From positions 1,470,001-1,502,000 of the forward strand of contig NZ_CP021983.2 of assembly GCF_002075285.3 (NCBI RefSeq): DNA of 32,000 nt, read 5' to 3'. This document shows, piece by piece, positions 7,823 to 24,675 of the stretch. The position numbers were made by a program, and so were the translations under genes. The notes beneath the pieces are model-generated. The model was given only the letters and a program-made list of their open reading frames with translations. It had not been told where the DNA came from and made no database searches. The first letter of the stretch is position 1, and every line of letters starts with the position of its first letter. This stretch comes from Halomicronema hongdechloris C2206. GTDB lineage: Bacteria; Cyanobacteriota; Cyanobacteriia; Phormidesmidales; Phormidesmidaceae.

Positions 7823-9051
7823 ATGACCCTGGCCCAACCGTCCCACAAGAAAGCTAAGGCCCTGCGTCCGGGGGCTCGTCGTCCGGCCAAGGAGTTGTGC
7901 AGCGAGTGTGGCCTTTGCGATACCTATTACATTCACTACGTCAAAGAGGCCTGTGCGTTCCTCAATCAGCAATTTCCTCAGCTAGAGGCACAGGCCCATG
8001 GCCGGGCTCGGGATTTGGAGAACACTGACGACTGCTACTTTGGGGTGCATCAATCCATGATGGCGGCCCGCAAGCGGCAGCCCCTGGAAGGAGCCCAGTG
8101 GACCGGTATCGTCAGCACCATTGCCGTGGCCATGCTGACCCAGGGCCGGGTGGAGGGGGTAGTCTGCGTGCAGAATACGGAGGAAGACCGGTTTCAACCC
8201 CAGCCGATTCTGGCCACTACCCCAGAGGAGATTCTGGCGGCCCGAGTCAATAAGCCCACCCTCTCCCCCAATCTGTCGGTGCTAGAGCAGATCGAGCAGT
8301 CGGGGCTGAAGCGGCTGTTAGTGATCGGGTAGGCTGTCAGATTCAAGCGCTACGGGCAGTGGAACAGCAGCTGGGGCTGGAGAAACTCTATGTATTAGGC
8401 ACCCCCTGTGTGGATAATGTCACCCGGACTGGGTTGCAAAAGTTCCTCGAGACCACCAGCCGCTCGCCAGAGACGGTGGTGCACTATGAGTTCATGCAGG
8501 ACTTTCGGGTGCATTTCAAACATGAGGATGGCTCGGTGGAGACGGTACCGTTTTTTGGCCTCAAGACCAACCAGCTCAAGGATGTGTTTGCCCCCTCTTG
8601 TATGAGCTGTTTCGACTATGTCAATGGGCTGGCGGATCTGGTAGTGGGCTACATGGGCGCCCCTTTCGGCTGGCAGTGGATCGTGGTGCGCAACCAGACG
8701 GGGCAGGACATGCTGGATCTGGTCATGGATCAACTAGATACCCAGCCAGTGACGAGCCAAGGTAATCGTAAGGCGGCAGTGCAGCAGAGTATTCCGGCCT
8801 ACGACAAGGGAGTGACCCTGCCCATGTGGGCGGCGAAGCTAATGGGGGTGGTGATTGAGCGAATTGGGCCGAAGGGGCTGGAATATGCGCGCTTCTCCAT
8901 CGATTCGCACTTCACCCGCAATTATCTCTACGTGCAGCGTCACCATCCCGAGAAGTTGGCAGACCATGTGCCGGCCTTTGCCCAGCGCATTGTCAGTCAA
9001 TACACCCTGCCGGAGGCAGAGGAGAGCCATGCGGATTCTGCTGGTGGATGA
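7823..9051 (+). pseudogene. bciB: Ferredoxin-dependent 3,8-divinyl (proto)chlorophyllide 8-vinyl reductase BciB (slr1923/FrhB-like), split by a 1-nt deletion at about 8329
   Basis: ORFs 7823..8332 (frame 2) and 8359..9051 (frame 1) together give the full protein: ...PAKELCSECGLCDTYYIHYVKEACAF...KRLLVIG|VGCQIQALRAVEQQLGLEKLYVLGTPCVDNV...SCFDYVNGLADLVVGYMGAPFGWQW. Reading GTA GGC TGT CAG from 8329 restores VGCQIQALRAV. Confidence 0.85.
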
Positions 9052-9707
9052 CGAAGCCGAATTGACCGATCCCCTCAGCCGCTTACTGCAAGGTCACGGG
9101 TATACGTAGACGTGGCCAGTGATGGGGATAAGGGACTGGTCCTAGCCCAGGGCGGCGGCTATGACCTACTGATCCTGGATTGGATGCTGCCGCAGTTGAA
9201 TGGGGTAGAGATCTGTCGGCAGGTGCGATCGCAGGGCGACAGCACCCCCGTCTTGTTTCTCACCGCCAAGGACACGGTGGATGATCGGGTGGCGGGCCTG
9301 GATGCTGGTGGCGATGATTATCTGGTCAAACCCTTTGAACTGCGGGAATTACTGGCCCGGGGCGGGCCCTGCTGCGGCGTCCACCCACCCTGGAAACCGG
9401 CGCCCCTGGCGAGCGTCTCAGCTTCGAAGATCTAGAGCTAGACTGCGACAACCAACTGGCCTATCGCCAGGGGCAGGCCATTGAGCTCTCGGAAAAGGAA
9501 ACCCGCTTACTGGCCTTTTTGCTGCAGCATCCCCACCAGTTGCTCAGCCACGACCAGATCTACCAGACGGTCTGGGTCGGCCAAGAGCGGCCCAGCAGTA
9601 ATGTACTAGCGGCCCAGATGCGGTTGCTGCGCCGTAAGATCGAGCCCCCTGGCACCTCTGCGTTGATTCACACCGTCTATGGCAAGGGCTATCGCTTGGG
9701 GCAATGA
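9029..9707 (+). pseudogene. OmpR-family two-component response regulator, interrupted by two 1-nt deletions (about 9106 and about 9361)
   Basis: Three frame segments join as MRILLVDDEAELTDPLSRLLQGHGYT|VDVASDGDKGLVLAQGGGYDLLILDWMLPQLNG...DDYLVKPFELRELLAR|.RALLRRPPTLETGAPGERLSFEDLELDCDNQLAYRQGQAIELSEKETRLLAFLLQHPHQLLSHDQIY...VYGKGYRLGQ. This gives a receiver domain with a phospho-acceptor DW context plus a winged-helix output domain. Confidence 0.85.
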
Positions 9708-9749
9708 GCGTTTTTGTATACTGAAGACCTAACGTTCTCGGTGATCCCC

Positions 9750-10148
9750 ATGACCGTTTCTCCTACTCTAGAGTTCTTTGAGGGCATCTACGAAGACCTC
9801 AGCAATGTCAGCCTGCGCCAGAACCGGGGCACAGGGGTGCGGTCAGCCAAGCTGATCTTTGAGCACATGGAAGCCATCGAGCAGTTCAAGAGCTTTCGCC
9901 GTCAATTTTCCAAGGCGCTGAAGCTAACGGATGAGGAGGGCATCATCACCGTCGAGCCCAGCGGCATCAAGTTTATCTTCGGTGGCCCTGAGGGCGATGA
10001 TCTGGTGCGGGTAGAATGCCTGCTGGAGATCGACCGAGACGACCACTGGCAGCGATTTATGCGATTTATGCACCGCTATGCCGACGCCCATGGCATGGCC
10101 TACGGTGAATCTAATCCTGACGCAATTCAAGGGAGCAAGCCATCATGA
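9750..10148 (+). CDS. psb28: Photosystem II assembly/reaction-centre protein Psb28 (paralog)
   Basis: MTVSPTLEFFEGI...LRQNRGTGVRSAKLIFE...LTDEEGIITVEPSGIKFIFG...DHWQRFMRFMHRYADAHGMAY. The W.RFMRFM.RYA signature is Psb28. I prefer ATG 9750 over the TTG at 9714. Confidence 0.8.
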   Translation: MTVSPTLEFFEGIYEDLSNVSLRQNRGTGVRSAKLIFEHMEAIEQFKSFRRQFSKALKLTDEEGIITVEPSGIKFIFGGPEGDDLVRVECLLEIDRDDHWQRFMRFMHRYADAHGMAYGESNPDAIQGSKPS

Positions 10149-11071
10149 AGGTCGCCATTACTGGAGCCACCGGATTCGTCGGCAGCCGCCTGGTGAAACG
10201 GTTGCAAGAACAAGGGCATGACAGCCTGGTGCTGACTCGCGATGCCAGCAAAGGGCGGCGGGTGTTTCCCACCAGTGCCTTTCCCCGAGTGCAGGTGGTG
10301 GCCTATGAGCCGCTGCAATCGGGAGCCTGGCAAGATGCGATCGCAGGCTGCGACGGCGTCGTCAACCTGGCCGGAGCCCCGATCTCAGAACGGTGGACCC
10401 CAGAGCACAAACAAGCCATGCTCAACAGCCGCCAGATCGGCACCGCCAAAGTAGTCGAGGCCATTGCCAACGCCGAGCCCAAACCCAACGTTCTCGTCAA
10501 TGCCTCCGCCATCGGCTACTACGGCACCAGCGAAACGGCCCGCTTCGACGAAACTAGCGCCCCGGTAGAGGATGACTTTCTCTCCCAAGTCTGCCGGGCC
10601 TGGGAAGCAGAAGCCCACAAGGTCAAAGAGGCTGGGGTGCGCCTGGTGATTCTGCGCTTCGGCATCGTCCTGGGCATGGGTGGAGCCATCGCCCGCATGG
10701 TGCCGCCCTTCCGCCTCTTTGCCGGCGGCCCCATCGGCAGCGGTCGGCAGTGGTTCTCCTGGATCCACCGAGAAGATTTGGTCAGTCTCATCCTCAAGGC
10801 CCTCAGCGAAGACACTATGGCCGGCATCTACAATGCCACCACCCCTCATCCCGTACGCATGGCCGAGCTATGCCATGCCCTAGGAGAGGTACTCAATCGC
10901 CCTTCCTGGCTGCCAGTCCCCGACTTCGTCCTAGAAGCTCTGTTGGGGGACGGGGCTAAGGTGGTGCTCGAGGGCCAGCAAGTATTACCCAAACGCACTG
11001 AAGCCAGCGGCTTCACGTTCCAATATCCCCGCGTAAAAGCTGCCCTGCAAGAGATCCTCACCGATTCTTGA
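10145..11071 (+). CDS. TIGR01777-type SDR/NAD-dependent epimerase-like oxidoreductase (YfcH-like)
   Basis: 308 aa with Rossmann motif VAITGATGFVGSRLV. Length and C-terminal region are typical of the family. Its start overlaps the psb28 stop (ATGA at 10145-10148). Confidence 0.75.
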   Translation: MKVAITGATGFVGSRLVKRLQEQGHDSLVLTRDASKGRRVFPTSAFPRVQVVAYEPLQSGAWQDAIAGCDGVVNLAGAPISERWTPEHKQAMLNSRQIGTAKVVEAIANAEPKPNVLVNASAIGYYGTSETARFDETSAPVEDDFLSQVCRAWEAEAHKVKEAGVRLVILRFGIVLGMGGAIARMVPPFRLFAGGPIGSGRQWFSWIHREDLVSLILKALSEDTMAGIYNATTPHPVRMAELCHALGEVLNRPSWLPVPDFVLEALLGDGAKVVLEGQQVLPKRTEASGFTFQYPRVKAALQEILTDS

Positions 11072-12737: not shown

Positions 12738-12921
12738 TAGAAGGGGAGTAGCCCTAGATCCTGGCAGGATCTAGCCGTCTGAATCAACATGCTGGCGATG
12801 AGCCTGGTTCAGATGGCGAATCGATTCCAACTCATAGCTTTGGCTGTCCTACTGCCTAGGCAGGCCAAGATGTGAGTTTGGCGCTAATCAGCATTTTTCG
12901 ATTCGCACGCGAGACCTTCAC
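12738..12921 (+). promoter_or_regulatory. Candidate yybP-ykoY (Mn2+) riboswitch aptamer upstream of mnx
   Basis: GAAGGGGAGTAGCC at 12740-12753 matches the conserved GGGGAGUAGC L1 element. The 3' CGAGACCTTC (12910-12919) closes P1 (GAAGG/CCTTC). A perfect 9-bp hairpin CTAGATCCT-GGC-AGGATCTAG follows L1. GAATC-AACATGC (12781-) pairs with GATTC-GCACGCGAGACC (12900-), resembling the L3/P3.1 consensus. The P3 insert is longer than usual. Confidence 0.5.
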
Positions 12922-13012: not shown

Positions 13013-13639
13013 ATGAGCATATTGACCGGATTTACGGCAGGGTTACTCTTGATTACCCTGTCTGAGTTGGGAGATAAGACCTTCTTCATCGGCGCTATTC
13101 TAGCCATGCGCCATTCCCGTCGTTGGGTATTTACCGGGGTGACGGCGGCCCTGTTGGCCATGACCATCCTGTCGGTCCTCATTGGTCAGGTGGTGACGGC
13201 TTTACCCCACGTTTATGTACAAGGAGTCGCCATCGCCCTATTCCTGGGCTTTGGCGGCAAACTGCTTTACGATGCCTGGTCCATGGCTAGGCCAGGGGAC
13301 TTAGACCATGAACAGGCGGATGCCCTGGCAGCAGTCGAACAGCGAGAACAGGGCCTGACCACCTGGTCCACCGGAGCCATTTTGGCTGAGGCCTTCACCC
13401 TTACTTTCATGGCAGAGTGGGGGGATCGCACCCAGCTGGCTACCATTACCCTGGCCGCTGCCCATCATCCCATCGGCATTGTGGCTGGGGCCAGCCTAGG
13501 CCATACCATCACCACCTGCATTGCTGTCATCTGCGGCAAGCTGGTTGCCGGTCGCATCTCTGAGCGCCTCTTGACAGGGTTAGGCGGCGGGTTGTTTGTC
13601 TTATTCGGTCTGATTACCGCCCTGAGGATGGGCACCTGA
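13013..13639 (+). CDS. mnx: UPF0016/TMEM165/GDT1-family Mn2+(Ca2+) transporter (Mnx/SynPAM71-like)
   Basis: 208 aa, multi-TM, with two copies of the family signature E-x-G-D-[KR]-[TS]: ELGDKTFF and EWGDRTQL. Confidence 0.85.
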   Translation: MSILTGFTAGLLLITLSELGDKTFFIGAILAMRHSRRWVFTGVTAALLAMTILSVLIGQVVTALPHVYVQGVAIALFLGFGGKLLYDAWSMARPGDLDHEQADALAAVEQREQGLTTWSTGAILAEAFTLTFMAEWGDRTQLATITLAAAHHPIGIVAGASLGHTITTCIAVICGKLVAGRISERLLTGLGGGLFVLFGLITALRMGT

Positions 13640-15073: not shown

Positions 15074-16255
15074 CTAGGACTGGGATAACCGTTTCACCGT
15101 TTCCCCCCCTAGGCGCTGGTGGGTCTCGGCCAACAGCTTGGGAATCTTCTGGGCGTGAGGGCTGCGGGCTAGGCACTTCGATAAGTCCAAGCGGTCAATA
15201 TCGCCAGCTTGTTGACCGGGAAACCAATGGCCGCCATTGCCCAGGAGATTGTAGCGGGCCTTGGCATACTCGTCCATATCAAAGGCCACCAGCAGGTTAT
15301 GCAGCCAAAGGATAGTGGGAATGTTGATGCGCCCAGGAGTATCTTCCGGCGTCGGCAGTCCCACCTGCCAGGTGCGTAGCCAATCGGTGCCTAGGGCATC
15401 GCTGGCAGCTTGCTCCAGTCGCTGCACAATTGGCGGTAGGATTTCTGCGGCTTGCTCTAACAGCGGCAAGACCTGCAAATGCTCATCAAAGTCGCTGGGG
15501 CGAGCCGCCCCTAGGCTGAGGGTATGGACCTGGGGATGGCTGAGGCAGAAGAGATCGTTGAAGACCATGGGGCTGAGGGGCGCACAGAGGTCAACTAGCT
15601 TCTGGGGCGGGTTGTAGAGATGGCCGCCCTTGTCTGAAGGACTGATGATGAATACCCCCATGTCATGGCGATTGGCGGCTTCAATGGCAGGCCAGTTGTC
15701 CTGATTGATGTAGTACCAGTGCAGATTGACGTAGTCGAATTGGTTGGTCTCGATGGCCTGCAGAATCACCCAGGTGGGGGCATGGGTAGAGAAGCCGATG
15801 TGGCCAATGCGTCCAGCCCGTTGAAAGGCTTGGGCCACCTCTAGGCAACCTCCCGGTCGGACGGTGTAGTCCAGCAGGTCTGGGGTGTTGATGCCATGGA
15901 TGCCGAGCAGATCGATGTGCTCCAGCCGTAGATTCTGCAGGGATTGCTCTAAGGTGCGACGAAAGTCTTGGGGATCGGGCTTGGGGGAAATTTTGGTCTG
16001 GACGATCAGCTTTTCCCGGGGCAAGCGGGGCAGAATCCGCCCCAACTGGATCTCAGAAGTACCATAGCCCCGGGCTGTTTCAATGTGAGTGATGCCGACC
16101 TCTAAGGCCCGGCGAATGGTGGCCTCGAGGTTAGCTTGGTTTTTCTGGGGAATTTGCCAGTGGGGACTGTCTTTCCAGGAATGCTGATAGCGCATGCCGC
16201 CGCAGGAAAAGACGGGCATGGGTAAATTGGTGCGGCCAAAGCGTCGATACTGCAT
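15074..16255 (-). CDS. Aldo/keto reductase family oxidoreductase with a C-terminal extension
   Basis: 393 aa: MQYRRFGRTNLPMPVFSCGGMRY...GITHIETARGYGTSE...IDLLGIHGIN...GHIGFSTH, an AKR fold pattern. Confidence 0.8.
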   Translation of the reverse strand: MQYRRFGRTNLPMPVFSCGGMRYQHSWKDSPHWQIPQKNQANLEATIRRALEVGITHIETARGYGTSEIQLGRILPRLPREKLIVQTKISPKPDPQDFRRTLEQSLQNLRLEHIDLLGIHGINTPDLLDYTVRPGGCLEVAQAFQRAGRIGHIGFSTHAPTWVILQAIETNQFDYVNLHWYYINQDNWPAIEAANRHDMGVFIISPSDKGGHLYNPPQKLVDLCAPLSPMVFNDLFCLSHPQVHTLSLGAARPSDFDEHLQVLPLLEQAAEILPPIVQRLEQAASDALGTDWLRTWQVGLPTPEDTPGRINIPTILWLHNLLVAFDMDEYAKARYNLLGNGGHWFPGQQAGDIDRLDLSKCLARSPHAQKIPKLLAETHQRLGGETVKRLSQS

Positions 16256-16321
16256 TGGTCAAATGTATGGAGGCTCTCTTCCACTGGTTCTATCACAGAA
16301 CTATAAAGAAGCACTTCCCCT

Positions 16322-16510
16322 GGGGTGATGGGGTGTATAGCCTAACGGCATTCAAGCAAGGCGGAGCCTGCCTGGAGGGCTGAGTGTTGAGTGTTGAGTG
16401 TTGAGTGTTGAGTGAATGGTTTGGCGCCCTGTCAAACGGTGGATGGGCGGGCGAGTAGGCCGATAGCGGATAGAGGTAAGGGGACAGGGTAGGGGCGCGG
16501 GAAAAGGCAG
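16322..16510. repeat. Dispersed MITE-like repeat, copy 2 (inverted relative to copy 1)
   Basis: This is the reverse complement of copy 1 (see 5148-5550). Its heptamer array is (GAGTGTT)x4 at 16381-16413. It lacks the nested 72-bp hairpin element. Track ORF 16293..16571 is a translation of this repeat. Confidence 0.8.
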
Positions 16511-16631
16511 CAAATATCTCGGGGGCACAAGTCTGGTCGGGGTAGGAGTCTGGTTCGGTAGAAGGCGGCAACCTAAGCGGCCTTCAGATCACCCTTTCAT
16601 CCTTTCTCCTTTTGCCTTCTGATTTTCTATC

Positions 16632-16666
16632 GTTTCCGTCCCCTTGCGGGGTAATGGGTTTTGAAC
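16632..16666 (-). CRISPR. Solitary CRISPR-like repeat (a single unit, no array)
   Basis: The minus-strand reading is GTTCAAAACCCATTACCCCGCAAGGGGACGGAAAC (35 nt). It has a GTTCAA..ACCC 5' end, an internal CCCC-GCAA-GGGG hairpin and a 3' GGAAAC. That layout matches cyanobacterial Cas6-type repeats such as Synechocystis CRISPR2 GTTCAACACCCTCTTTTCCCCGTCAGGGGACTGAAAC (quoted from memory). I found no second copy in the window. Confidence 0.4.
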
Positions 16667-16906
16667 CCCCTCGATCTGGAGCCCTTACAGGGCAAAGGTT
16701 TCAGGGGGGTGTTTTCGCTAGGGTCTCGTGGAAAGCAAAATTATTGCGAATCCCTGTCAATAGACCTCTGTGGAAAACACCTGAAACCTTTACGTAGCAA
16801 GCGATTCGCTAGGGTTAACAAAACTATGCGGTTTTCAAGGATCGGAAGACCCCCACGAAAGCGAGAGATTTACGAACATATTAGTCGCTGAATATTTGAA
16901 AATCAA

Positions 16907-17632
16907 TCAAATCGCAGGATTTCGCAATATTCCATAGTTATCCAGCTCTCTCGCCGCTTCCGACATCATCTGCTGTCGCACCACCAGCGGCGCAATCACC
17001 TCCCCCTGCGGTCGCCAATCGCGCAGTCGCATCGTTACATTAATATCCCCTACCCGCATCCAGCCCCGGTAGTAGGCATCTGTAGCGGGACGCTGGGCCA
17101 GTACCTGCAAAATCTCCTGCTGTTCCGTTGCCTCCGCCACCTCAATATGCACCAATTGCGCCAACTCCCCATAGCTCACCGGCCCAAAGGTGGGGTGGCG
17201 CTCCGTATCCTGTACATACCCGTGGGCAAACTCCGGCTCAAACCGCATGATCAGCAGTGCTTTGGGCAGATAAAAATTAAATCCCCAGGCCGCTGCCAAC
17301 TGCACCTGCACCTGTTCTGGGGTAGGCAGTTGCCCGGTGTCCCGCAGGGTTTTGAGCTCGGGGGGCACCGCTGGATCGCCCCAGGGTAAGACCCTCAGGT
17401 GGGGGGAGCGGATGCGATCCAGGCGGTAGTTATGCCAGCCAATGTGGCCATCGGGATCTTGGCCATAGGCGCTGAGGTACTTGGCCCGGCGGGCATAGTG
17501 CACACACACTGGATACACCGTCACCGTGGCGGTGCGCCGTTGGCGAACCACCCAGTTGTCAAACTGAATCACGCCGCCATCGGGGGTTTGCCAGAGGGCT
17601 TCGATTTGCTGCTGGTAGCTGTCCACCCTCAT
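16907..17632 (-). CDS. WYL-domain protein with C-terminal extension and no N-terminal HTH (CRISPR-associated WYL-like)
   Basis: GHIGWHNYRLDRIRSPHLRVL is the WYL signature, followed by a ~150-aa C-terminal domain. Only ~65 residues precede the motif, so there is no room for a wHTH. The 5' end is interrupted by a MITE. ATG 17632 sits at the MITE junction, and the TTG at 17668 used by the track lies inside the MITE. Confidence 0.7.
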   Translation of the reverse strand: MRVDSYQQQIEALWQTPDGGVIQFDNWVVRQRRTATVTVYPVCVHYARRAKYLSAYGQDPDGHIGWHNYRLDRIRSPHLRVLPWGDPAVPPELKTLRDTGQLPTPEQVQVQLAAAWGFNFYLPKALLIMRFEPEFAHGYVQDTERHPTFGPVSYGELAQLVHIEVAEATEQQEILQVLAQRPATDAYYRGWMRVGDINVTMRLRDWRPQGEVIAPLVVRQQMMSEAARELDNYGILRNPAI

Positions 17633-17756
17633 TGACTGACAAAACCTGCTAGAACCCAGACTATCCAAAGGGTCAGGGAACCTGCCCCCTACAGCATCCG
17701 AAATCTGGTAAGGGCGCGGAAACCGCGCCCAATGCAGAATCTTTTGTCAGTCAACC
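17628..17756. mobile_element. 129-bp MITE with 13-bp perfect terminal inverted repeats and a flanking 11-bp direct repeat
   Basis: The TIRs are TTGACTGACAAAA (17632-17644) and TTTTGTCAGTCAA (17742-17754). The direct repeat AGCTGTCCACC occurs at 17617-17627 and 17757-17767. An internal hairpin GGGCGCGGAAACCGCGCCC (17712-17730) is related to the one at 5323-5341. Confidence 0.65.
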
Positions 17757-17860
17757 AGCTGTCCACCTGCTCTTGCATCTCATCTGAAAGAATATAGTGC
17801 AAATGCAGAAAAATCCGATTGAAACCTTAATTTACGAACTTTTCACTCTAAAAAACTTGA

Positions 17861-18586
17861 CTATACTCGCCGTTTTTGATCAACTAATGCAAATGCAGGT
17901 GAAATGAGACCAACTACAGCCGCAGTTAAATTTAATCCCTGGATAAAAGAGCTTTCGGGTCCAATAGTTATAAAAACTATCAATGAAATCAACATAACGA
18001 CAAGAGATATGGCACCCACGTACCAGAGTAGGTATGATTTACGTAAAAGAGAGGACTGACTATTTCTGACTGGATCAGTCTTGCTCAAGCAAGTATAAGA
18101 GTAATCCGTTTCATTCAATACGTGGTAGAGAAAATCATCTGAACGATTTGGATCGTATTTTGGTTTCAATTCAAATGTGTAAACTGACTCAATACCAAGT
18201 GCAAGGCATACGGCAAAAACATCTATGCTTGGTCTTTTAGGAGCAGTCGTTAAATCAACTATCCATTTTGTATTTTTCTGACTTTTGATAACCTGGTACA
18301 ATTCTCGCTTCAGATTTGAGTACTCAATCGGAATTAATTCCCTTTTCAAAAGTTGCTCATTTATTTGTTTGTAAACACCAGAGAATCGCGAAGAAAGGTC
18401 GCCTAGTCGGCCCCATATTTTGCTAGAAATGTTACTTGCTTCAGAATCAGTAATTCCTGTTTCAGTTCCTTTGATGTGTATCAGTTTGATTGCTTCTATT
18501 CCCATATTTTCATAGGCATATGAAATCGCATTAATGTACGAATCGACATTGGGAGAGAAGAGAAAAACTAAAAGTGTTTTAAGCAT
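17861..18586 (-). CDS. CARF-like sensor domain fused to two C-terminal transmembrane helices (putative cyclic-oligonucleotide-gated membrane effector)
   Basis: I place the start at ATG 18586 (MLKTLLVFLFSPNVDSY...), which overlaps the upstream stop in ATGCTTAA. The N-terminal half is Rossmannoid: beta1 LLVFLFSP, IEAIKLIHIKG, and WIVDLTTAPKR, which fits the CARF motif [DN]x[ST]xxx[RK]. The C-terminal TM helices are LLWYVGAISLVVMLISLIVFITIG and LNLTAAVVGLISPAFALV. Confidence 0.6.
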   Translation of the reverse strand: MLKTLLVFLFSPNVDSYINAISYAYENMGIEAIKLIHIKGTETGITDSEASNISSKIWGRLGDLSSRFSGVYKQINEQLLKRELIPIEYSNLKRELYQVIKSQKNTKWIVDLTTAPKRPSIDVFAVCLALGIESVYTFELKPKYDPNRSDDFLYHVLNETDYSYTCLSKTDPVRNSQSSLLRKSYLLWYVGAISLVVMLISLIVFITIGPESSFIQGLNLTAAVVGLISPAFALVDQKRRV

Positions 18587-18971
18587 CAAGAAAATCCTCC
18601 AATTCTCTAAACTGACGAACACAATTCTTGCCACTTGTCTTAGCCAGCTTTAAAGCAAAGTAAGCTTCTCTTGGAGTTTTTCCAAGTCCTATTGATAGTG
18701 TGCTTTTGGCCTTTTTCTGAAATTCAAATCTAATTTTTTCGATCAGATTGAGAGTATCGTCTGTTTTGCTAATGCGGGCTAAAATATTATCTCCACCTGT
18801 AAATATTATTTCTGCCTCGCAAGACTCTATAAGCTCATATTCTAGCCAAAGCATCGCTTTATGAAATACTTTTGAAAATTCGAAAATTTTAGCTGATTCA
18901 TTTCTCAACATAAGATATTCAAGATGATGTCCAACATCATCACCATCGGCAGCAAAATAGAGTTTAGTCAT
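18579..18971 (-). CDS. Minimal Cas10-palm/GGDEF-like nucleotide cyclase (mCpol-like), 130 aa
   Basis: LYFAADGDDVGHH is the first acidic metal-binding motif. IIFTGGDNILARI is the GGDD/GGDEF-equivalent. LSIGLGKTPREAYFALKLAKTSGKNCV is the SxG...AK..GKN tail common to GGDEF and Cas10 palm domains. No other domain fits in 130 aa. Confidence 0.65.
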   Translation of the reverse strand: MTKLYFAADGDDVGHHLEYLMLRNESAKIFEFSKVFHKAMLWLEYELIESCEAEIIFTGGDNILARISKTDDTLNLIEKIRFEFQKKAKSTLSIGLGKTPREAYFALKLAKTSGKNCVRQFRELEDFLDA

Positions 18972-19224
18972 ACATTTTCTTTCAAATAATCAATGGTTTG
19001 CCGCCTAAATTTTAAGTTAGGAAGAACAAGGATAAATTCCATATAAAGAGACAAGTGTTAGGTGTCTGCCACCTTTATCATATTAATTAAGCAAGGATAT
19101 CGATTAGTCATGAAGTCAGATCATGGCTGATTTAAGAACAACGATACTTTTGTATGAATTGCACTTATCTTATATCAAGTCTCCATTCCTTGCCTCCCAA
19201 TAAATCAGGTCTTGTATCCAGTTT

Positions 19225-19695
19225 GTGTTACCTTCTCACCACCTGGGGGCGGCCCTGCTGGTGGTCGGCCCACCCGACAGCGGTAAGTCGGTACTCAGCC
19301 ATGCCCTGTTTCGGGCCTTGCTGCCGGAGTATCCGGACGTGTTTTTGCAGCGAGCCCAGTGGGATGGGGAGGGCAACTGGACTTTAGAGCTGCCGGAGTC
19401 AGCAACAGCAGCGGATCGGGAGGCCTTCAAGCTGTTCTATAAGGGCGGCTTGACGGCGGGCTTTTTCCCGTATCAGGCCCAGGCGATTTTGCAGCTGCGG
19501 CGACGGAAGCCGCTGGTGATAGTGGATGTGGGCGGCAGGGTGCAGCCGGAGAAGGTACCGATTTTGGAGGCGTGTTCCCATTACCTTGTACTCAGCTCAA
19601 AGCTCCGGGAGGTGAAGCAATGGCATGAGTTTTGCGGCGATCGGGGCAATTTATCGCCATTAGCAGTTATCCACAGTAGAATGGCACTGACATAA
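19225..19695 (+). CDS. Small P-loop NTPase, family not recognised. The 3' end is formed by the IS4 terminal repeat.
   Basis: It has a GTG start at the AT-rich/GC-rich boundary, Walker A VVGPPDSGKSVL and Walker B-like PLVIVDVGG. The last ~6 codons and the stop (..SRMALT*) lie inside the IS inverted repeat beginning at 19679, so the native C-terminus is probably lost. Confidence 0.55.
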   Translation: MLPSHHLGAALLVVGPPDSGKSVLSHALFRALLPEYPDVFLQRAQWDGEGNWTLELPESATAADREAFKLFYKGGLTAGFFPYQAQAILQLRRRKPLVIVDVGGRVQPEKVPILEACSHYLVLSSKLREVKQWHEFCGDRGNLSPLAVIHSRMALT

Positions 19696-21158
19696 GCCGT
19701 ATCAAGCAACTAGTTTAGCTTTCGCAACCGAGCGCGGTTCTTGCATTCTGGGGAACGGTTTGGGGCGACGTTTGACCACTCGGGGTTCTGAGCGGTGCGG
19801 TCGAAAAGGGATAATCAACTCCCGCACAGCGTTTAACAAGGCTTGGTAGCCTTGCGGTCGCGCAGATGGCGAGAGATGCAGCAACTCGGGTCGGAAATGA
19901 TTGAATTGTTGCCGCGTGCCCTGTAGGGAGAGCCGCAAAGCCCCGACCTCGGCATCGGCGCCGGCTTCCCACATCAGCGTTCGCAGCAGATTGTAGGCCA
20001 ACAAATGCACCCAAATACTTTTAGTCACCATGGTAGGGGTTTTGGCGGCAACCATCTCCATGGCTAAGGTGGTTTTGAGATGTCTGAGATTGACTTCAGC
20101 GGCTTGCCAACGCAACTGATAGAGTTGGGCCAATTTGGCTCTAGGATAGCGTTTGGGGTCTATCAAGGTGGTCACTACCACAAAGTTGCTCGGGCGAAAC
20201 CCAGGGACTTGAATCGAGAGATAGACTTCGCGCACCTCAAGCGCCTCGGGCAACGCCTCAAACTCCTCCGGTGAAAGGGCATGAGGACATTTTTTCGGGC
20301 GCTGCCACCGGACGATGTGGTCGCCAATGCCTAGCTTTTTGCCGCGCCTGAAATCACAACGGCGTTGATGATGCTTGCGAAAGACGGCATCGGCTCCCAT
20401 CGCGGTGACTCCAGCCAAATCGACATAGGTGCCGTAAGCCGAATCGGCCACCACCACATCCTCTGGGCACAACGTCTGATAGAGGTGACGGGCTAAGCGC
20501 CATTCACTGACCCGAAAGGGAGCCATTGCGACTTCCAATACCGCTCCTGTGGTCACACAAAACCACACTTGCAGCTTCAGGAGGGGAAAGCCACAGCCGC
20601 TCTTTTGATTACTGTGCTGGGGATACGCCCGTTGATTCACTTCGGTATCGCTCATCAAAATCGTCGTCGCATCAAACGCCCTCACGACCCGACCGCACCA
20701 CCGCTGAGCTGGGGATACCTGCGCCTGTAAAGCCGTGGCGACGCGCTTTACAAGCGGTGGAAAAATCGATTCGGGCCAGCGTTTGCGGGCTTTGCTGTAG
20801 GCGCCCGTATCCGCCGACGGCACGCTCAATCCAGCCACCCGCATCCAGGTCGTCACGCGCTTGACAGCATGGCTCAAACTGCTGTCCGAATCGAGAACTT
20901 GCGACAGCCAACTCCACAGCACCACTATCGGGGTGTAAAGCACTTGGCGATAAGTGACTCCCTGGGCCTCCAGCACCGCCTGAATCTCTGCTTCCGGCAG
21001 CACATCGCTAAACGGTAGACCGATGCTGTTCTGGTATTGCTCCTTGAGGACTGCTGCACGATTCGGCATCATAGAGACATGGTTATGGGCTTCGACGCTT
21101 TGATTCTTACAGATCAAGCGCTTGAAGCCTTTTTTGCTCTCTTATGTCAGTGCCATTC
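19679..21158. mobile_element. IS4-family insertion sequence (~1.48 kb), apparently intact
   Basis: It has 18-bp perfect terminal inverted repeats: GAATGGCACTGACATAAG at 19679-19696 and its complement CTTATGTCAGTGCCATTC at 21141-21158. They enclose one transposase ORF. There is no matching target-site duplication on the two flanks. Confidence 0.75.
19702..21072 (-). CDS. IS4-family DDE transposase
   Basis: The ORF runs 19702..21117, and I place the start at ATGATG 21072 (MMPNRAAVLKEQYQ...). The DDE context is VVRAFDATTI, VVVADSAYGTY and YQLRWQAAEVNLRHLK (a YxxR...E...K-type motif). Confidence 0.85.
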   Translation of the reverse strand: MMPNRAAVLKEQYQNSIGLPFSDVLPEAEIQAVLEAQGVTYRQVLYTPIVVLWSWLSQVLDSDSSLSHAVKRVTTWMRVAGLSVPSADTGAYSKARKRWPESIFPPLVKRVATALQAQVSPAQRWCGRVVRAFDATTILMSDTEVNQRAYPQHSNQKSGCGFPLLKLQVWFCVTTGAVLEVAMAPFRVSEWRLARHLYQTLCPEDVVVADSAYGTYVDLAGVTAMGADAVFRKHHQRRCDFRRGKKLGIGDHIVRWQRPKKCPHALSPEEFEALPEALEVREVYLSIQVPGFRPSNFVVVTTLIDPKRYPRAKLAQLYQLRWQAAEVNLRHLKTTLAMEMVAAKTPTMVTKSIWVHLLAYNLLRTLMWEAGADAEVGALRLSLQGTRQQFNHFRPELLHLSPSARPQGYQALLNAVRELIIPFRPHRSEPRVVKRRPKPFPRMQEPRSVAKAKLVA

Positions 21159-22058
21159 AGCCCTAGTAGACCCCCAGCAGTTGCAGGAGTGCTTCTTGAG
21201 TTGGGTGCAGCAGCTCACGGAGCAGTTGGAGATTAACCTGATTCATCTCGACGGGAAAACGGCGCGGGGGTCCTATGACCGAGAGAGGTCGTTGAGAGCC
21301 TTGCAGACCGTCAGTGCCTGGGCCTCAGAGCATCATCTGGTGCTGGCGCAACACCGCGTCGAAAGCACCTCGAATGAGATTACCGCTATTCCCGAATTGC
21401 TCAACCTGCTGGATCTCGACGGTGCGATTATCACCCTGGATGCCATGGGCACGCAACGGGAGAGTGCTGCCCAGATCCGGGAGCAAGGAGGGGACTACAT
21501 CCTGGCACTGAAAGGCAATCAAGGGACCCTCCACCACGCGGTGAAGACCTTCTTTCAGGAGGCGGAGCGCACTCAGTGGGCAACCCTGGATTATAGCTAC
21601 AGTAGCACCACAGAAGCCGGTCATCATCGCATTGAACATCGTCAGGTCTGGGCGGTGCCGCTGAGTCAAGTGCCCGAGTTGCCCACTCACCAGACCTGGA
21701 GCGGCCTGGCTACCGTTGTGATGGTCAGCGCGACCGCCAATTGTGGAACAAGACGACCCATGAGGTGTGCCTCTACATCAGCAGTTTGCCAGCTGAGGCC
21801 AGTGTGTTGGCCCAAGCGATCCGCTCCCATTGGGGCATCGAAAATAGCTTGCACTGGGTGTTGGATGTCACCTTTCGGGAAGACTCGAGTCGGATTCGCA
21901 GCGGTCATGGTCCTGAAAACATGGGCCTCTTACGGCGTTTGGCCCTGAATTTACTCAACCGGGCTCCCTCTAAGCAGAGTCTCAAACAGAAACGCTATCG
22001 CGCTGCCATGGACAATGACTTTGTCATCGAGGTGTTGCTTGCTCATGACGTTGGCTAA
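21159..22058 (+). pseudogene. ISAs1-family (H-repeat-type) transposase, 5'-truncated by the IS4 element or a rearrangement, and frameshifted at about 21731
   Basis: The sequence begins mid-protein at LVDPQQLQECFLSWVQQL...LIHLDGKTARGSYD...ITLDAMGTQRESAAQI..GGDYILALKGNQGTL. It then shifts frame to RQLWNKTTHEVCLYISSL...IRSHWGIENSLHWVLDVTFREDSSRIR. About 95 N-terminal codons are missing. The element's right end probably lies between 22059 and about 22235. Confidence 0.8.
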
Positions 22059-22210
22059 GGCCAGCGAAACGGCCCTGATAAGGGGACACAAACGATTGGA
22101 GGACACGACAATCCAGCTCATGCAGCTCTCAGACTATTCCAACGGGGTTGGAATCACGTTTTCAGCATCTAAAACTGGCATGACTCATAAAATCCTGATC
22201 TGGATTCTGA

Positions 22211-22444
22211 GCATTATGTCAAGCTGATTTACGTGCGATTGCCCTGTATGAGGGGCAGACCTTAGAGGCTGTAGTGACAGCCATTAAAGGTAACAGAGTC
22301 ACTTATGAAATGTTAGGCACTATCAAGCTAACGGCTAGGGAACCTCAAAAGGCCAAGCTACTGTCGGAGGGTCAGATTGTCACTGTCAAAGTCACGGCTC
22401 TAAAACCAGATGGATCACCTAAGAACGTCAAATTTACGGGTTAA
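22211..22444 (+). pseudogene. Orphan 3' gene fragment with no start codon, ending 5 nt before the TIR-SAVED ATG
   Basis: The open frame reads ..DLRAIALYEGQTLEAVVTAIKGNRVTYEMLGTIKLTAREPQKAKLLSEGQIVTVKVTALKPDGSPKNVKFTG* with native-like composition. The only ATG is internal. It abuts the ISAs1 right end. I do not recognise the family; the pattern is beta-rich and OB/S1-like. Confidence 0.3.
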
Positions 22445-22449
22445 TTATT

Positions 22450-23718
22450 ATGAATACTGCGCCAACCACTTCCTATCGGTCTCCCTTTGTTTCTACCTTC
22501 CTATCCCACTCCTCTGCCGATAGCGATCTGGCGGCAGCCGTGACCAAACGCCTAGGGCGTCGCGGTGTTTTAACCTGGCTTGATAAAAATGAACTACTCG
22601 AAATGGGGTCGCTGGATGGGGTTCTGAAACAGGCCGTCCAGCAGCAGGCAACCTTGACGCTTTTTCTATCTGAAGCCTCTCTAAAGTCTGAGTGGTGTAG
22701 AGACGAACTCAGATGGGCGATCGAGGCTCAGGCGGGGACCGATCATTTGCTGCCGGTATATTTGGGAGATCCCCTGAAGCTGATCAAAAGCCATCCTCTG
22801 CTGCGCGAAAGGTTTCTGCATGCCGATGGCAATCGCGTCAATCAACTGGGCTATGCCTGCCAGCAGGAGGCCGGCGAACCGAATCCAGATGCGATCGCAC
22901 AAAAAATTGCCGCCACCGCCTACCACCGTTCCATCCCTGACCCCTGGTCTGAGGTGGTGATTGTGTTAGACCAACGGGGCAGTGGCCCCCGCCGTGGCCT
23001 CCCAAAACTTCCTGCCAACATCGCCAGTCTCCAAGCCCCCACCCTCACCTTTCGCCCCGATACCAGATCCCGCCAGATGCGAGAACTGCTAACTGGCGAC
23101 GATTGGGACGATATGGCCAACACCCTGAAACAGTCCCTATCTAACGCCCTCGGCACAGTGCGGGGAGAGCCTCGTAAAGTACGGGTTCTCGGCAACGCCC
23201 AGACAGGGCTGGTATGGGCCGTGGGCCGCCACTTTGACCGCACCACCGCTGCCGACCTCTACGGCTATGATCGAGATGGTCTAGCCGTCACGAATCAAGG
23301 GCAAGCAAGGCACACCCCCTTACTGGGCGGAAATCCGGAGAGAGCCCAGCCAGCCAACGATAAAGCAAAAGCACCAGAGGTTAAGTTGCCCACGGTCGCT
23401 CTGGGCATTGGGTCACAGCGGCGATACGGTTCTCAAGTCCAAGACGCTGGGCCTGATCTGCCGTTGTTTTGGATAGAGTCTGGCTCAATCGAAGACTCCA
23501 AACAGGCTATGGAGCTAGTGGCAGATATCGTGGCCTCTGTCGAACAGTTGCGGCGAGAGTATGGCACTCGGGAACTCGTCCTGTTTTGGACCACCGCCAA
23601 CCATGTGGCCCTGCTGGCCGCCGCTAACCTGACCTCCCATGTCATTCCTAAAATCAAATATATGGAATGGGATCATGCCAATGATAGGTACGTGCATCTT
23701 CCCATGTTGGGGGATTGA
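22450..23718 (+). CDS. TIR-SAVED fusion protein (cyclic-oligonucleotide-sensing NADase-type effector)
   Basis: The N-terminus is a TIR_2 pattern: FLSHSSADSDLAAAVTKRLGRRGVLTWLDKNEL...LFLSEASLKSEWCRDELRWAIE. The C-terminal ~250 aa show two CARF-like halves typical of SAVED: VRVLGNAQTGLVWAVGRHFDRT and ELVLFWTTANHVALLAAANLTSHV..IKYMEWDH. It contains a HIP1 site at 22891. Confidence 0.7.
   Translation: MNTAPTTSYRSPFVSTFLSHSSADSDLAAAVTKRLGRRGVLTWLDKNELLEMGSLDGVLKQAVQQQATLTLFLSEASLKSEWCRDELRWAIEAQAGTDHLLPVYLGDPLKLIKSHPLLRERFLHADGNRVNQLGYACQQEAGEPNPDAIAQKIAATAYHRSIPDPWSEVVIVLDQRGSGPRRGLPKLPANIASLQAPTLTFRPDTRSRQMRELLTGDDWDDMANTLKQSLSNALGTVRGEPRKVRVLGNAQTGLVWAVGRHFDRTTAADLYGYDRDGLAVTNQGQARHTPLLGGNPERAQPANDKAKAPEVKLPTVALGIGSQRRYGSQVQDAGPDLPLFWIESGSIEDSKQAMELVADIVASVEQLRREYGTRELVLFWTTANHVALLAAANLTSHVIPKIKYMEWDHANDRYVHLPMLGD
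23256..23348. repeat. Direct repeat copy A (inside the SAVED-coding region)
   Basis: A 93-bp stretch CCTCTACGGCTATGATCGAGATGGTCTAGCCGTCACGAATCAAGGGCAAGCAAGGCACACCCCCTTACTGGGCGGAAATCCGGAGAGAGCCCA recurs at 24501-24593 with one mismatch. Weaker similarity extends ~15 bp upstream and ~30 bp downstream. Confidence 0.9.
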
Positions 23719-23814
23719 TAGACCTTCCATTTCAAGGCTTATTACTTTGAGCAGCATCGTCTGACAATCAGTCAGGCTATGCTGATAGCAAGACTGTCTC
23801 TGGGACCAGCCACC

Positions 23815-24435
23815 ATGCCGTTTAGCGGATTCAAGAGCCTGGGCGAAACTCTCAAAGAATTTGAGATTGTCTACACCGAAGCGAACTTTATCGAGGGTGT
23901 GCCGTTCGCTATCTCAGACTATTTCCGGCAAGACCTAAGGCTCATGTTGGATGATGCTGTGGTAGACAACTCCGAGTACGCGATTTGCGAGAACCTGGTG
24001 TATCCCATTCTCAAAGAAATCTGGAAGCAGTATCGGCGCAACTTTATTCTCTGGAGTCATGAGTTTCTCAACTGCGATGCTCAGCTGTCAGGGTTTCCCG
24101 AGTATATTTTGGCGCGGCGATCGCCCCTCGGCAAAATCGTCTTCGACAAGCCCTACTTCGTGCTGGTAGAAGCCAAGCAAGACAACTTTGATGCTGCCTG
24201 GAGCCAGTGCCTCGCTGAGATGATTGCCGCTCAGCGCTTGAACGACAATGAACAACTCGTGATTTTCGGCATTACCTCCAACGGCGATCGCTGGCAGTTT
24301 GGCAAGCTGGATGGAACTCAGTTCACCCTTAACCGAACTTTCTACACCATTCAAGAGTTGGACACGTTGTTTGCAGCAGTGAACTACGTGTTTCAGCAGT
24401 GCGAGCAACAGTTGAATGCCCTCATTGCTGTTTAG
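23815..24435 (+). CDS. PD-(D/E)xK nuclease-fold protein, type I restriction R-subunit N-terminal (HSDR_N)-like
   Basis: GFPEYILARR...PYFVLVEAKQDNFDAAWSQCLAEM gives a (P)E ... ExK arrangement, and the size is ~200 aa. The start is either ATG 23815 or ATG 23779. HIP1 sites lie at 24117 and 24284. Confidence 0.55.
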   Translation: MPFSGFKSLGETLKEFEIVYTEANFIEGVPFAISDYFRQDLRLMLDDAVVDNSEYAICENLVYPILKEIWKQYRRNFILWSHEFLNCDAQLSGFPEYILARRSPLGKIVFDKPYFVLVEAKQDNFDAAWSQCLAEMIAAQRLNDNEQLVIFGITSNGDRWQFGKLDGTQFTLNRTFYTIQELDTLFAAVNYVFQQCEQQLNALIAV

Positions 24436-24500
24436 ACCTCTGGTATATCGGCGACAGATGTTATAAATCATCCTGCCTTTCCCTCACCCACTGCCGCCAA

Positions 24501-24593
24501 CCTCTACGGCTATGATCGAGATGGTCTAGCCGTCACGAATCAAGGGCAAGCAAAGCACACCCCCTTACTGGGCGGAAATCCGGAGAGAGCCCA
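24501..24593. repeat. Direct repeat copy B (a remnant of SAVED-coding sequence upstream of glcF)
   Basis: See copy A. The offset is exactly 1245 bp. In frame it reads NLYGYDRDGLAVTNQGQAKHTPLLGGNPERA, a gene fragment rather than a functional ORF. Confidence 0.9.
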
Positions 24594-24675
24594 TCCAGTC
24601 AATAATAGAGCAAAAGAACCAATGGTCAGGAATCCAGCGCGGTACCCTGAAAGAGAGCACGCCGATAGCCTCACC

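Follow-up and report, generated by a model that had tools for sequence, protein, structure and literature searches.

A probable remnant of a Csm-type type III CRISPR locus enclosing an operon of the type II Panoptes kind in Halomicronema hongdechloris

In 32 kb of DNA from the cyanobacterium Halomicronema hongdechloris C2206 (the whole stretch is called the window here, and all coordinates are window positions), an island of about 8 kb (16,580–24,640) lies amid housekeeping genes. The island carries predicted receivers of cyclic nucleotide signals, and the question it raises is where these genes came from and what could still signal to them. A first-pass annotation, made from the letters alone, had taken the island for a dismantled type III CRISPR locus from which Cas10 had been lost, and had offered two sequels: either a resident TIR-SAVED effector and an imported minimal cyclase (mCpol) now share a nucleotide, or the island is a graveyard of fragments. 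Most probably, the island is left over from a type III locus of the Csm type (III-A/III-D-like), and it contains a self-contained Panoptes unit, i.e., mCpol together with a CARF-2TM membrane effector. All of its parts are of known kinds, so the island is an instructive example and not a new system.

From left to right, the island consists of a probable CRISPR leader with one repeat, the C-terminal half of a WYL regulator gene, the mCpol/CARF-2TM cassette, the AAA part of a Csx3-AAA gene, an insertion sequence (IS) of the IS4 family, the remnant of an ISAs1 element, the 3′ end of csx21, a TIR-SAVED gene, a PD-(D/E)xK gene and a 139-nucleotide (nt) duplicate of a segment of TIR-SAVED. The eight items listed in the first-pass annotation are all present in the order given there, on profile, repeat and IS evidence, and several can now be named more precisely. 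The WYL gene, described there as related to regulators of cyanobacterial CRISPR loci, does belong to the CRISPR-associated TIGR03985 type, but represents only the C-terminal half of the family protein. The small P-loop protein does have a P-loop, and is the AAA portion of Csx3-AAA; what was listed as a gene fragment belongs to csx21, of which it forms the 3′ end; the two IS elements are a complete IS4 and a dead ISAs1 remnant; and the TIR-SAVED and PD-(D/E)xK genes are both confirmed by PADLOC and intact. Four genes are truncated (WYL, Csx3-AAA, csx21 and the ISAs1 transposase gene) and four are intact (mCpol, CARF-TM, TIR-SAVED and PD-DExK). Two features are additions to the first-pass list: the 139-nt duplicate and a transposon-like insertion in the WYL remnant.

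All plausible open reading frames (ORFs) of at least 120 amino acids (aa) in the window were scanned with Pfam, PADLOC and NCBIfam, and none of them matched Cas10, Csm/Cmr or other RAMP backbone subunits, Cas6, Cas1/2 or a CD-NTase; no window ORF matched the SMODS/CD-NTase cyclase of a system for signalling against phages by cyclic oligonucleotides (CBASS). Relics of such genes, including the RAMP subunits and Cas6, did not turn up either when type III proteins from relatives were used as tblastn queries against the window, and no relic of Cas10 came up with the Cas10 proteins of three relatives (contigs L001, L002 and L132). The absence of these components, as first noted from the letters, is borne out, and so is the observation that the 130-aa mini-cyclase is the only candidate signal generator in the window. 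Of the features of a type III system, the window has no Cas10, no RAMP subunits or Cas6 and no repeat-spacer array, but does have ancillary genes in conserved order: WYL/TIGR03985, Csx3-AAA, Csx21, TIR-SAVED and PD-DExK, three of these five being truncated.

The ancestry of the island can be read from relatives, whose contigs carry L-numbers: L002 is from Leptolyngbya sp. SIO1E4, L091 from Leptolyngbya PCC 6406, L131 from Sorangium and L132 from a metagenome. In L002, genes for Csx3-AAA (306 aa), Cas10, Csm3, Csx10, Csm2, Csm3, Csm3, Csx19, a Csm3-like protein, Csx21 (209 aa) and TIR-SAVED follow one another in one direction, and after them come PD-DExK, an array of eight repeats, cas2 and cas6. 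In L132 the genes run from Cas6 through Csm4, Csm3, Csm2 and Cas10/Csm1 to Csx3-AAA (319 aa), with WYL-N and WYL-C genes oriented divergently, and the DNA is 73–79% identical at the nt level to the WYL and AAA blocks of the window. L107 has an array, a full-length WYL gene (an ORF of 512 aa) and, after a gap of 72 nt, Csx3-AAA. L001 has a Cas10-Csm operon, Cas6, a csx21-like gene and TIR-SAVED; L130 has a Cas10-Csm operon and Cas6 with TIR-SAVED directly after them; and in L131 TIR-SAVED lies against a RAMP operon. Orthologues of TIR-SAVED adjoin a type III effector operon in all four contexts examined, so that the cognate cyclase (Cas10/CD-NTase) that is absent from the window is present beside the orthologues.

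The window agrees with cyanobacterial type III-D/Csm-type loci such as that of L002 in its set of ancillary genes and in how these are ordered and oriented, as well as in repeat family and leader-like flank, and its proteins are closely related to theirs (PD-DExK 88% identical, the AAA part 76%, TIR-SAVED 66–81%). The window differs in having no cas10, no csm2–5/csx10/csx19 and no cas6, a single repeat, and truncated WYL, Csx3-AAA and csx21 genes. It retains genes from both sides of the effector module and none from inside it. Because relatives carry these same genes around an intact cas10-csm operon, the island is best described as a dismantled type III locus; on this point the comparison of synteny upholds the first-pass annotation.

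Table 1. Features of the island, in window coordinates
Feature	Coordinates	Strand	Basis
Array-distal flank	16580..16631		79–81% identity to sequence preceding first repeat of L002 array
Single CRISPR repeat, GTTTCCGTCCCCTTGCGGGGTAATGGGTTTTGAAC on + strand	16632..16668	-	Rfam CRISPR-DR57
Probable CRISPR leader, ~200 nt	16670..16863	-	Flank conserved beside arrays of same repeat family
WYL-C, C-terminal half of TIGR03985-type CRISPR-associated regulator (WYL + C-terminal extension)	16907..17668	-	TIGR03985 1.5e-96
MITE-like element, 123 nt, within WYL reading frame	17632..17754		14-nt terminal inverted repeats TTGACTGACAAAAG
Short WYL relic (~aa 238–259 of full-length protein, 21 residues)	17755..17817	-	Upstream of MITE-like insertion
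Low-GC cassette with putative type II Panoptes operon, 1.4 kb	17822..19239	-	Junctions mapped by alignment
CARF-2TM effector, 241 aa	17861..18586	-	PADLOC CARF_m9--CARF_TM 4.7e-67, full length
mCpol, OptS-like minimal Cas10-type cyclase, 130 aa	18579..18971	-	Pfam PF18182 1.8e-25
Csx3-AAA remnant, AAA (P-loop) part only	19240..19683 (ORF 19225-19695)	+	PADLOC Csx3-AAA 3.2e-58
Complete IS4-family element	19679..21158	-	Transposase ORF 19702-21117, NCBIfam IS4 transposase 3.1e-55
Dead ISAs1-family remnant	21159..22210 (right end approximate)	+	NCBIfam ISAs1 transposase, two frames
csx21 3′ fragment, ~last 75 codons	22211..22447	+	PADLOC Csx21 2.7e-19
TIR-SAVED ancillary effector, 422 aa, intact	22450..23718	+	PADLOC SAVED5--SAVED_TIR 1.7e-92
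CRISPR-associated PD-(D/E)xK, intact	23779..24435 (likely start 23815)	+	PADLOC PD_DExK 4.5e-46
Duplicate of internal TIR-SAVED segment (copy of 23243-23381), 139 nt	24488..24626	+	Direct repeat, 91% identity

How the effector module was lost is recorded at the junctions between Csx3-AAA and csx21. The Csx3-AAA remnant covers positions 107–246 of the 286 positions of the PADLOC profile and corresponds to aa 118–265 of the 306-aa protein of L002 (76% identity; 82% to the L132 protein): the N-terminal Csx3/Crn3 ring-nuclease domain is missing, lost at the junction with the cassette, and the last ~41–54 codons were removed by IS4. An independent small ATPase was considered for this P-loop ORF and ruled out, as the ORF is the middle of Csx3-AAA. 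The IS4 element itself is complete, with a full-length transposase and perfect 18-bp terminal inverted repeats (GAATGGCACTGACATAAG), and its two flanks are unlike (…ccacagta and agccctag…), i.e., there is no target-site duplication; on its left is Csx3-AAA and on its right is the interior of the ISAs1 transposase gene. The ISAs1 remnant matches profile positions 52–243 and 245–314 of 314, so that the first ~51 are absent, and has a frameshift near 21745. It joins csx21 at about codon 134 of 209. The csx21 fragment covers positions 147–199 of the 201 positions of the PADLOC profile, and matches by tblastn aa 134–207 of 209 in L002 and aa 54–132 of 132 in L001 (61% identity). Because an IS4 without a target-site duplication sits at the breakpoints, these data support the view that the effector module, some 8–9 kb if judged from L002 and L132, was removed by an IS-associated deletion. 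The truncation of the 3′ end of the AAA gene by IS4 is a recent event.

The same junction could have been produced in the computer rather than in the cell, i.e., the cas10-csm genes could be present in the organism and have been collapsed out of the assembly at repeated IS copies. The breakpoint does lie exactly at the IS4 copy, and the genome has 123 IS-related ORFs (PMC6416890), which are classic sites of misassembly. However, reads from PacBio, 454 and Illumina, supplemented by Sanger-sequenced polymerase chain reaction products, were combined to close the genome (PMC6416890); the succession of IS4, truncated ISAs1 and truncated csx21 is a layered history and not a simple collapse; and decay is indicated independently by the shrunken array, the insertion of a miniature inverted-repeat transposable element (MITE)-like sequence and the duplicated fragment. 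Such an artefact is hardly credible. In comparison with IS-mediated decay of CRISPR-Cas loci in general, the deletion in the window is alike in being bounded by an IS without target-site duplication and in leaving a collapsed array and surviving peripheral genes; it differs in that the survivors are cyclic-nucleotide receptors beside a predicted constitutive cyclase, and is otherwise nothing unusual.

The array has eroded too. The solitary CRISPR-type repeat seen by the first-pass annotation (GTTTCCGTCCCCTTGCGGGG…) matches Rfam CRISPR-DR57 over the full length of the model with 29.3 bits (E = 0.009; the gathering score, 39, is higher). The eight-unit array of L002 shares its first 20 nt without a mismatch, and at least 120 stretches of public genomes have array repeats with this same 20-nt core. 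Because arrays exist in which the repeat is only 1–2 nt away from it (in L091 and in L011, L012, L014 and L037), the window repeat can be regarded as a genuine member of the family and not a chance match. The window contains no second copy. The flank to the right of the repeat is 81% identical to the flank of the L091 array and is also conserved in L105, L100, L094, L037, L077 and L002 (at least seven other genomes in all), a conservation that makes it the probable leader. Given this leader, the CRISPR RNA strand is probably the minus strand, on which the repeat would end ...ACGGAAAC. Both flanks of the repeat are homologous to array flanks of other genomes, and because a single repeat retains both of them, the array appears to have shrunk to its leader and one repeat.

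On the other side of the leader, the WYL gene has lost its beginning. The window protein matches positions 205–436 of the 437 positions of the PADLOC HTH-WYL profile and aligns, for example, with residues 254–486 of a family member of 488, members of the family being ~440–510 aa long; the N-terminal ~240 aa, including the DNA-binding part, are absent from the gene. A short relic upstream, found by tblastn with residues 239–259 of the full-length WYL protein P0119 (67% identity, E = 5e-4), has the translation RIFLHLHYILSDEMQEQVDSW. Family length and relic together rule out that the WYL gene is complete. Between gene and relic lies the MITE-like element. Its terminal inverted repeats gave two matches where 0.21 are expected by chance, its fold as single-stranded DNA has a z-score of -6.6 with an internal hairpin rich in guanine and cytosine (GC), and GGTGGACAGCT is duplicated on both sides of it; the window contains only this one copy. 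The closest WYL relative (L132 9227–10720) encodes the regulator in two pieces, an N-terminal ORF of 210 aa and a C-terminal one of 239 aa, and the break falls at about the residue with which the window ORF starts; a stand-alone C-terminal WYL module may be a viable form.

Between the WYL relic and the AAA gene lies the cassette with mCpol and CARF-2TM. Its GC content is 36–42% against 52–60% in the surrounding DNA. mCpol also matches the Cas10 palm2 profile (4.3e-9) and NCBIfam mCpol (4e-21), and its full length matches the Panoptes OptS structures 9mnr and 9nwn in the PDB with E of ~6e-10. The motifs DGDD (D9/D11) and GGDN (D61) are invariant in its clade. CARF-2TM (XM38_014000, an identical protein) starts 8 nt before mCpol ends, and this overlap is kept in all relatives. 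A search of the PDB with the CARF-TM sequence gave no meaningful match; an AlphaFold2 model (predicted local distance difference test, pLDDT, 83.5) shows a CARF fold and, after it, two long C-terminal helices (171–208 and 213–240), and its best Foldseek matches are the CARF domains of Csm6, Cad1, Can2, Cdn1 and Card1. mCpol lies immediately upstream of CARF-TM in L003–L009 and in nine of nine metagenome loci that include upstream DNA; because the two are adjacent in every context examined, they can be taken to be inherited as a unit.

The pairing of mCpol with CARF-TM genes was reportedly first recognised by Burroughs et al. in 2015 and by Sullivan et al. in 2025. By architecture and homology the pair in the window is a member of type II Panoptes, with its chemistry predicted from relatives. 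Type II Panoptes is a published system of two genes, mCpol and CARF-TM (Gruschow et al., PLoS Biol 2026, PMC13577387), and about 40% of mCpol genes are paired with CARF-2TM genes (Sullivan et al. 2025, PMC12657218). The three type II mCpols that have been studied, from Cylindrospermum, Sphingomonas and Ahniella, constitutively make 3′3′3′-cyclic tri-adenylate (cA3), slowly, at ~1 turnover per hour; cA3 holds CARF-TM as an inactive dimer, and where phage sponges or phosphodiesterases (Acb2, Acb1, Crn4) deplete cA3, the membrane is permeabilised and growth is arrested (PMC13577387). The window operon is like these systems in having an mCpol of ~130 aa directly upstream of, and overlapping, a CARF-2TM gene of ~240 aa, in the conserved palm-domain aspartates, in its cyanobacterial host (as for the studied system of Cylindrospermum stagnale) and in a genome or locus with type III CRISPR components. 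It differs in that its clade has GGDN and not GGDD, where the studied Cylindrospermum enzyme has D63/D64, and in lying within a type III locus, where it separates WYL from Csx3-AAA and has destroyed the 5′ ends of both.

Other copies of the operon travel in other company. In L008 mCpol-CARF-TM is beside a phage-type integrase. In L006 (Anabaena sp. CCY 0017; 8177–10729) it directly follows a gene for an XisA/XisC-type recombinase, and a segment of ~9 kb around the cassette separates nifK from nifD/nifH and looks like a nifD excision element; there the Panoptes cassette appears to be cargo of a nif element excised in heterocysts. In two metagenome contigs (L136 570–2489 and L140 59–3284) a cas6-like gene adjoins the cassette, which hints at recurrent nesting of type II Panoptes in CRISPR loci.

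How long the cassette has been in this position can be estimated from another organism (L003/L004), in which it lies between a 5′-truncated Csx3-AAA and a WYL fragment, with Cas10 still adjoining (the N-terminal 405 residues, PADLOC 5.5e-59). There the cassette has 33% GC against 53–60% in its flanks and occupies the same relative position as in the window. The two are 79% identical at the nt level over 17857–18992, and their synonymous divergence (dS) is 1.0–1.1 in the cassette and 0.8–1.0 in the flanks. Because position is shared and synonymous divergence is equal, the insertion of the cassette is old and preceded the split from the L003 lineage. The truncation points differ: on the csx3 side L003 retains 113 nt more than the window, on the WYL side ~300 nt less. 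These differences fit one old insertion of the cassette followed by lineage-specific erosion. Thus, a recent, strain-specific insertion is ruled out. The first-pass annotation had called this an imported insert: import is supported by the low GC content (36% against ~57%), but a recent arrival is contradicted by the sharing with L003/L004. What the cassette displaced was the divergent promoter region of WYL and Csx3-AAA, together with the ~240 N-terminal residues of WYL and the ring-nuclease domain of Csx3.

A separate observation concerns that domain: both cassette-bearing lineages are without Csx3 (Crn3), as seen at L003 1212–1970 and window 19240–19683, and the ratio of nonsynonymous to synonymous divergence (dN/dS) of the AAA part is 0.06. 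Loss of the ring nuclease may have been selected after the locus gained a system that fires upon degradation of a cyclic nucleotide.

The dN/dS of all surviving frames is 0.06–0.23, which indicates strong purifying selection: 0.06 for the AAA remnant against L003, 0.11–0.23 for WYL-C against relatives, 0.08 for mCpol, 0.12 for CARF-TM, 0.12 for TIR-SAVED and 0.07 for PD-DExK. Given this selection, the genes reduced to AAA or to WYL-C seem to have functioned for a long time in that reduced form. These values bear on the suggestion that the island is a mere graveyard, in which no gene is functional any more and all are decaying. It has four truncated genes, it has been hit by a MITE-like element and two IS, its array has collapsed, and a duplicated scrap of gene lies at its right edge. 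Yet mCpol, CARF-TM, TIR-SAVED and PD-DExK are full length with every invariant residue of their families, and have dN/dS of 0.07–0.12; the Panoptes pair retains the same 8-nt translational overlap as all its relatives; and loss of mCpol alone would make the operon toxic, which leads one to expect the pair to be kept or lost as a whole. The graveyard thus describes the four fragmentary genes and not the other four, which show no decay, and as an account of the whole island it is unlikely. The intactness of the orphans TIR-SAVED and PD-DExK would follow either from a recent deletion or from their still being in use.

TIR-SAVED (XM38_014060, an identical protein) has the domains Pfam TIR_2 (4.6e-16), Pfam SAVED (9.2e-9) and NCBIfam SAVED (6.3e-11). 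It departs from the consensus at 2 of 92 highly conserved columns (the family median is 2) and keeps E86 of the WCRDE motif, which is invariant in 74 homologues. The best Foldseek match of its AlphaFold2 model (pLDDT 89) is 7QQK, “TIR-SAVED bound to cA3” (E = 8.7e-13, TM 0.63), and by homology it would be a NADase activated by a cyclic oligoadenylate. With 7QQK, the TIR-SAVED of Microbacterium ketosireducens (Hogrel et al. 2022), it shares the two-domain architecture, a structural match over the whole length and the TIR glutamate; it differs in being only 17% identical and in belonging to a clade that adjoins type III CRISPR operons and not CBASS. At this level of identity, the activator (cA3, cyclic tetra-adenylate (cA4) or another) is not transferable from 7QQK to the window protein. 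With CRISPR-linked TSR1 the window protein shares the TIR-SAVED architecture, but it has no Crn4 domain. In the literature on TIR-SAVED, two relatives have cA3 as their activator, and CRISPR-linked members have tentatively been assigned cA4; cA3 activates a CRISPR-linked TIR-SAVED-Crn4 protein, and one TIR-SAVED responds to the nucleotide of a non-cognate host enzyme. Csx3/Crn3 is a ring nuclease specific for cA4. The PD-DExK protein that follows is the one, already mentioned, that has its 88% identical counterpart at the syntenic position in L002.

The 139-nt duplicate lies between PD-DExK and the GlcF-like gene, where it overlaps the nominal start codon of the latter. It also matches aa 260–312 of the L001 TIR-SAVED by tblastn and is probably a scar of rearrangement.

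Could mCpol have become the cyclase of TIR-SAVED? In this salvaged partnership, as the first-pass annotation had imagined it, the nucleotide made by mCpol would feed the resident TIR-SAVED after the loss of Cas10 and the two would form a hybrid cyclase-NADase system. Characterised type II mCpols make 3′3′3′-cA3, the molecule bound in the closest structure to TIR-SAVED and the activator of the Crn4-linked protein; the genes are 3.5 kb apart, mCpol has no competitor in the window, and a TIR-SAVED can use the signal of a non-cognate enzyme. Against this, synthesis by mCpol is constitutive and not induced by infection, so that as an activator of a NADase it would be poisonous or irrelevant, and the published rule is that the signal of Panoptes differs from those of co-resident effectors. 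mCpol is always with CARF-TM, with which it makes a complete published system, and is with TIR-SAVED in the window only, being found elsewhere beside an integrase, in a nif excision element or beside cas6, whereas orthologues of TIR-SAVED go with Cas10 operons in every one of the four contexts. The cassette was present while cas10 remained (in L003) and so was not recruited after its loss; the ancestral Csx3/Crn3 is specific for cA4, tentatively also the signal of CRISPR-linked TIR-SAVED; and mCpol and TIR-SAVED are on opposite strands with two IS between them. The partnership is very unlikely, and this part of the first-pass annotation is not sustained.

A variant in which both receivers use cA3 for different ends would give the Panoptes cassette a dedicated role inside the locus, as the guard of a type III system that has a TIR-SAVED using that same molecule. 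The basal level of cA3 from mCpol would be below the threshold of the cooperative NADase, yet enough to silence CARF-TM; upon infection Cas10 would raise cA3 and TIR-SAVED would fire, and a phage that destroyed cA3 would make CARF-TM fire instead. This would fit the repeated occurrence of the cassette in CRISPR loci (the window, L003/L004, and beside cas6 in L136 and L140) and the loss of the Csx3 ring-nuclease domain from both cassette-bearing lineages. It would, if true, contradict the rule that the decoy must not be the molecule used by co-resident effectors, as stated by the authors of the Panoptes study (PMC13577387), and it would mean that in H. hongdechloris both receivers still draw on a single pool of nucleotide now that Cas10 is gone. 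A guard of this kind appears improbable.

The preferred reading, that of a type III remnant with an independent Panoptes unit, can be set out as a series of events. The original order would have been leader and array, WYL on the minus strand, a divergent Csx3-AAA, cas10, the csm genes (with cas6 perhaps among them), csx21, TIR-SAVED and PD-(D/E)xK. In a first, old step, insertion of the cassette would have replaced the divergent promoter region and the 5′ parts of WYL and Csx3-AAA. In a second and more recent step, ISAs1 would have inserted into csx21, and then either a deletion adjacent to IS4 or recombination between two IS4 copies would have removed all the DNA between the 3′ end of Csx3-AAA and the interior of ISAs1, and with it cas10, the csm genes and csx21 up to its middle. 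As a third kind of change, the CRISPR array would have shrunk to its leader and one repeat. In the cell as it is now, mCpol would, by homology, provide a small, constant supply of cA3 that holds CARF-2TM as an inactive dimer; depletion of cA3 by a phage sponge or phosphodiesterase would change the state of CARF-2TM and bring about membrane damage and growth arrest, independently of the rest of the island. For the orphaned TIR-SAVED and PD-(D/E)xK to act, their activator would have to come from a cyclase encoded elsewhere in the genome; otherwise they would be recent relics that have yet to decay.

Observed in this account are the identities of the genes, where they are truncated, their synteny, the position that the two cassettes have in common, the structure of the IS and the marks of selection; the cA3 chemistry, the inhibitory logic, the succession of events and any signal from elsewhere in the genome are inferred. 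Several points weigh against parts of this account. The paper on the genome reports a type III system in H. hongdechloris, in one sentence and one figure legend (PMC6416890), an annotation that might refer to the present locus; the part of its supplementary tables considered here has entries for cas1 and cas2-3, in rows whose locus tags are seemingly mismatched. Among the best 120 of 1229 matches of a Cas10 profile search, none is from H. hongdechloris. The order of the IS events is modelled from one copy of IS4. Low dN/dS averages a long history and is no proof of function since the recent deletion, and a scan for promoters and terminators found fewer sites in the island than in shuffled sequence, a count that is not informative. 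As to the chemistry, the window pair was likened to the three tested systems by description, the product of its mCpol clade could differ, given GGDN, and the combination of a cA3-bound nearest structure for TIR-SAVED with cA3 as the product of type II mCpols means that cross-talk may be possible.

The value of the locus lies in the nesting. So far, type II Panoptes has only been proposed to be a guard of type III CRISPR signalling, and a guard operon found in two lineages between a type III regulator and a ring-nuclease gene, and long inherited together with the type III locus, is evidence of physical linkage for that idea. A predicted constitutive cA3 synthase 3.5 kb from an intact TIR-SAVED is also a natural test of the orthogonality of decoys. 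Otherwise the island illustrates ordinary, IS-driven erosion of CRISPR-Cas and counsels caution, as ancillary genes and single repeats can outlive their system.

The island is bordered on the left by an aldo-keto reductase gene (15074–16255) and on the right by the GlcF-like iron-sulfur gene (from ~24,650), and the remainder of the window consists of the usual cyanobacterial housekeeping genes (GlyS, Psb28, amylase and others). A sequence of ~200 nt occurs twice in inverted orientation, at 5334–5541 and 16321–16500 (88–95% complementary), both copies carrying tracts of 7-nt repeats (TGAGTGT / AATTTTG); the two flank an 11-kb block of housekeeping genes, the right copy touching the left edge of the island, and may represent a dispersed repeat or serve as a substrate for inversion. 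At 12742–12903 there is a match to the yybP-ykoY manganese riboswitch that is below threshold (18.9 bits where the gathering score is 45, E = 0.22) and lies directly upstream of a gene for a cation transporter of the GDT1/UPF0016 family (13013–13639), the usual type of target of this riboswitch. Finally, N- and C-terminal FrhB/FdhB-like domains are encoded by two ORFs, at 7823–8332 and 8359–9051, that are 26 nt apart, which suggests a gene that is frameshifted or naturally split.

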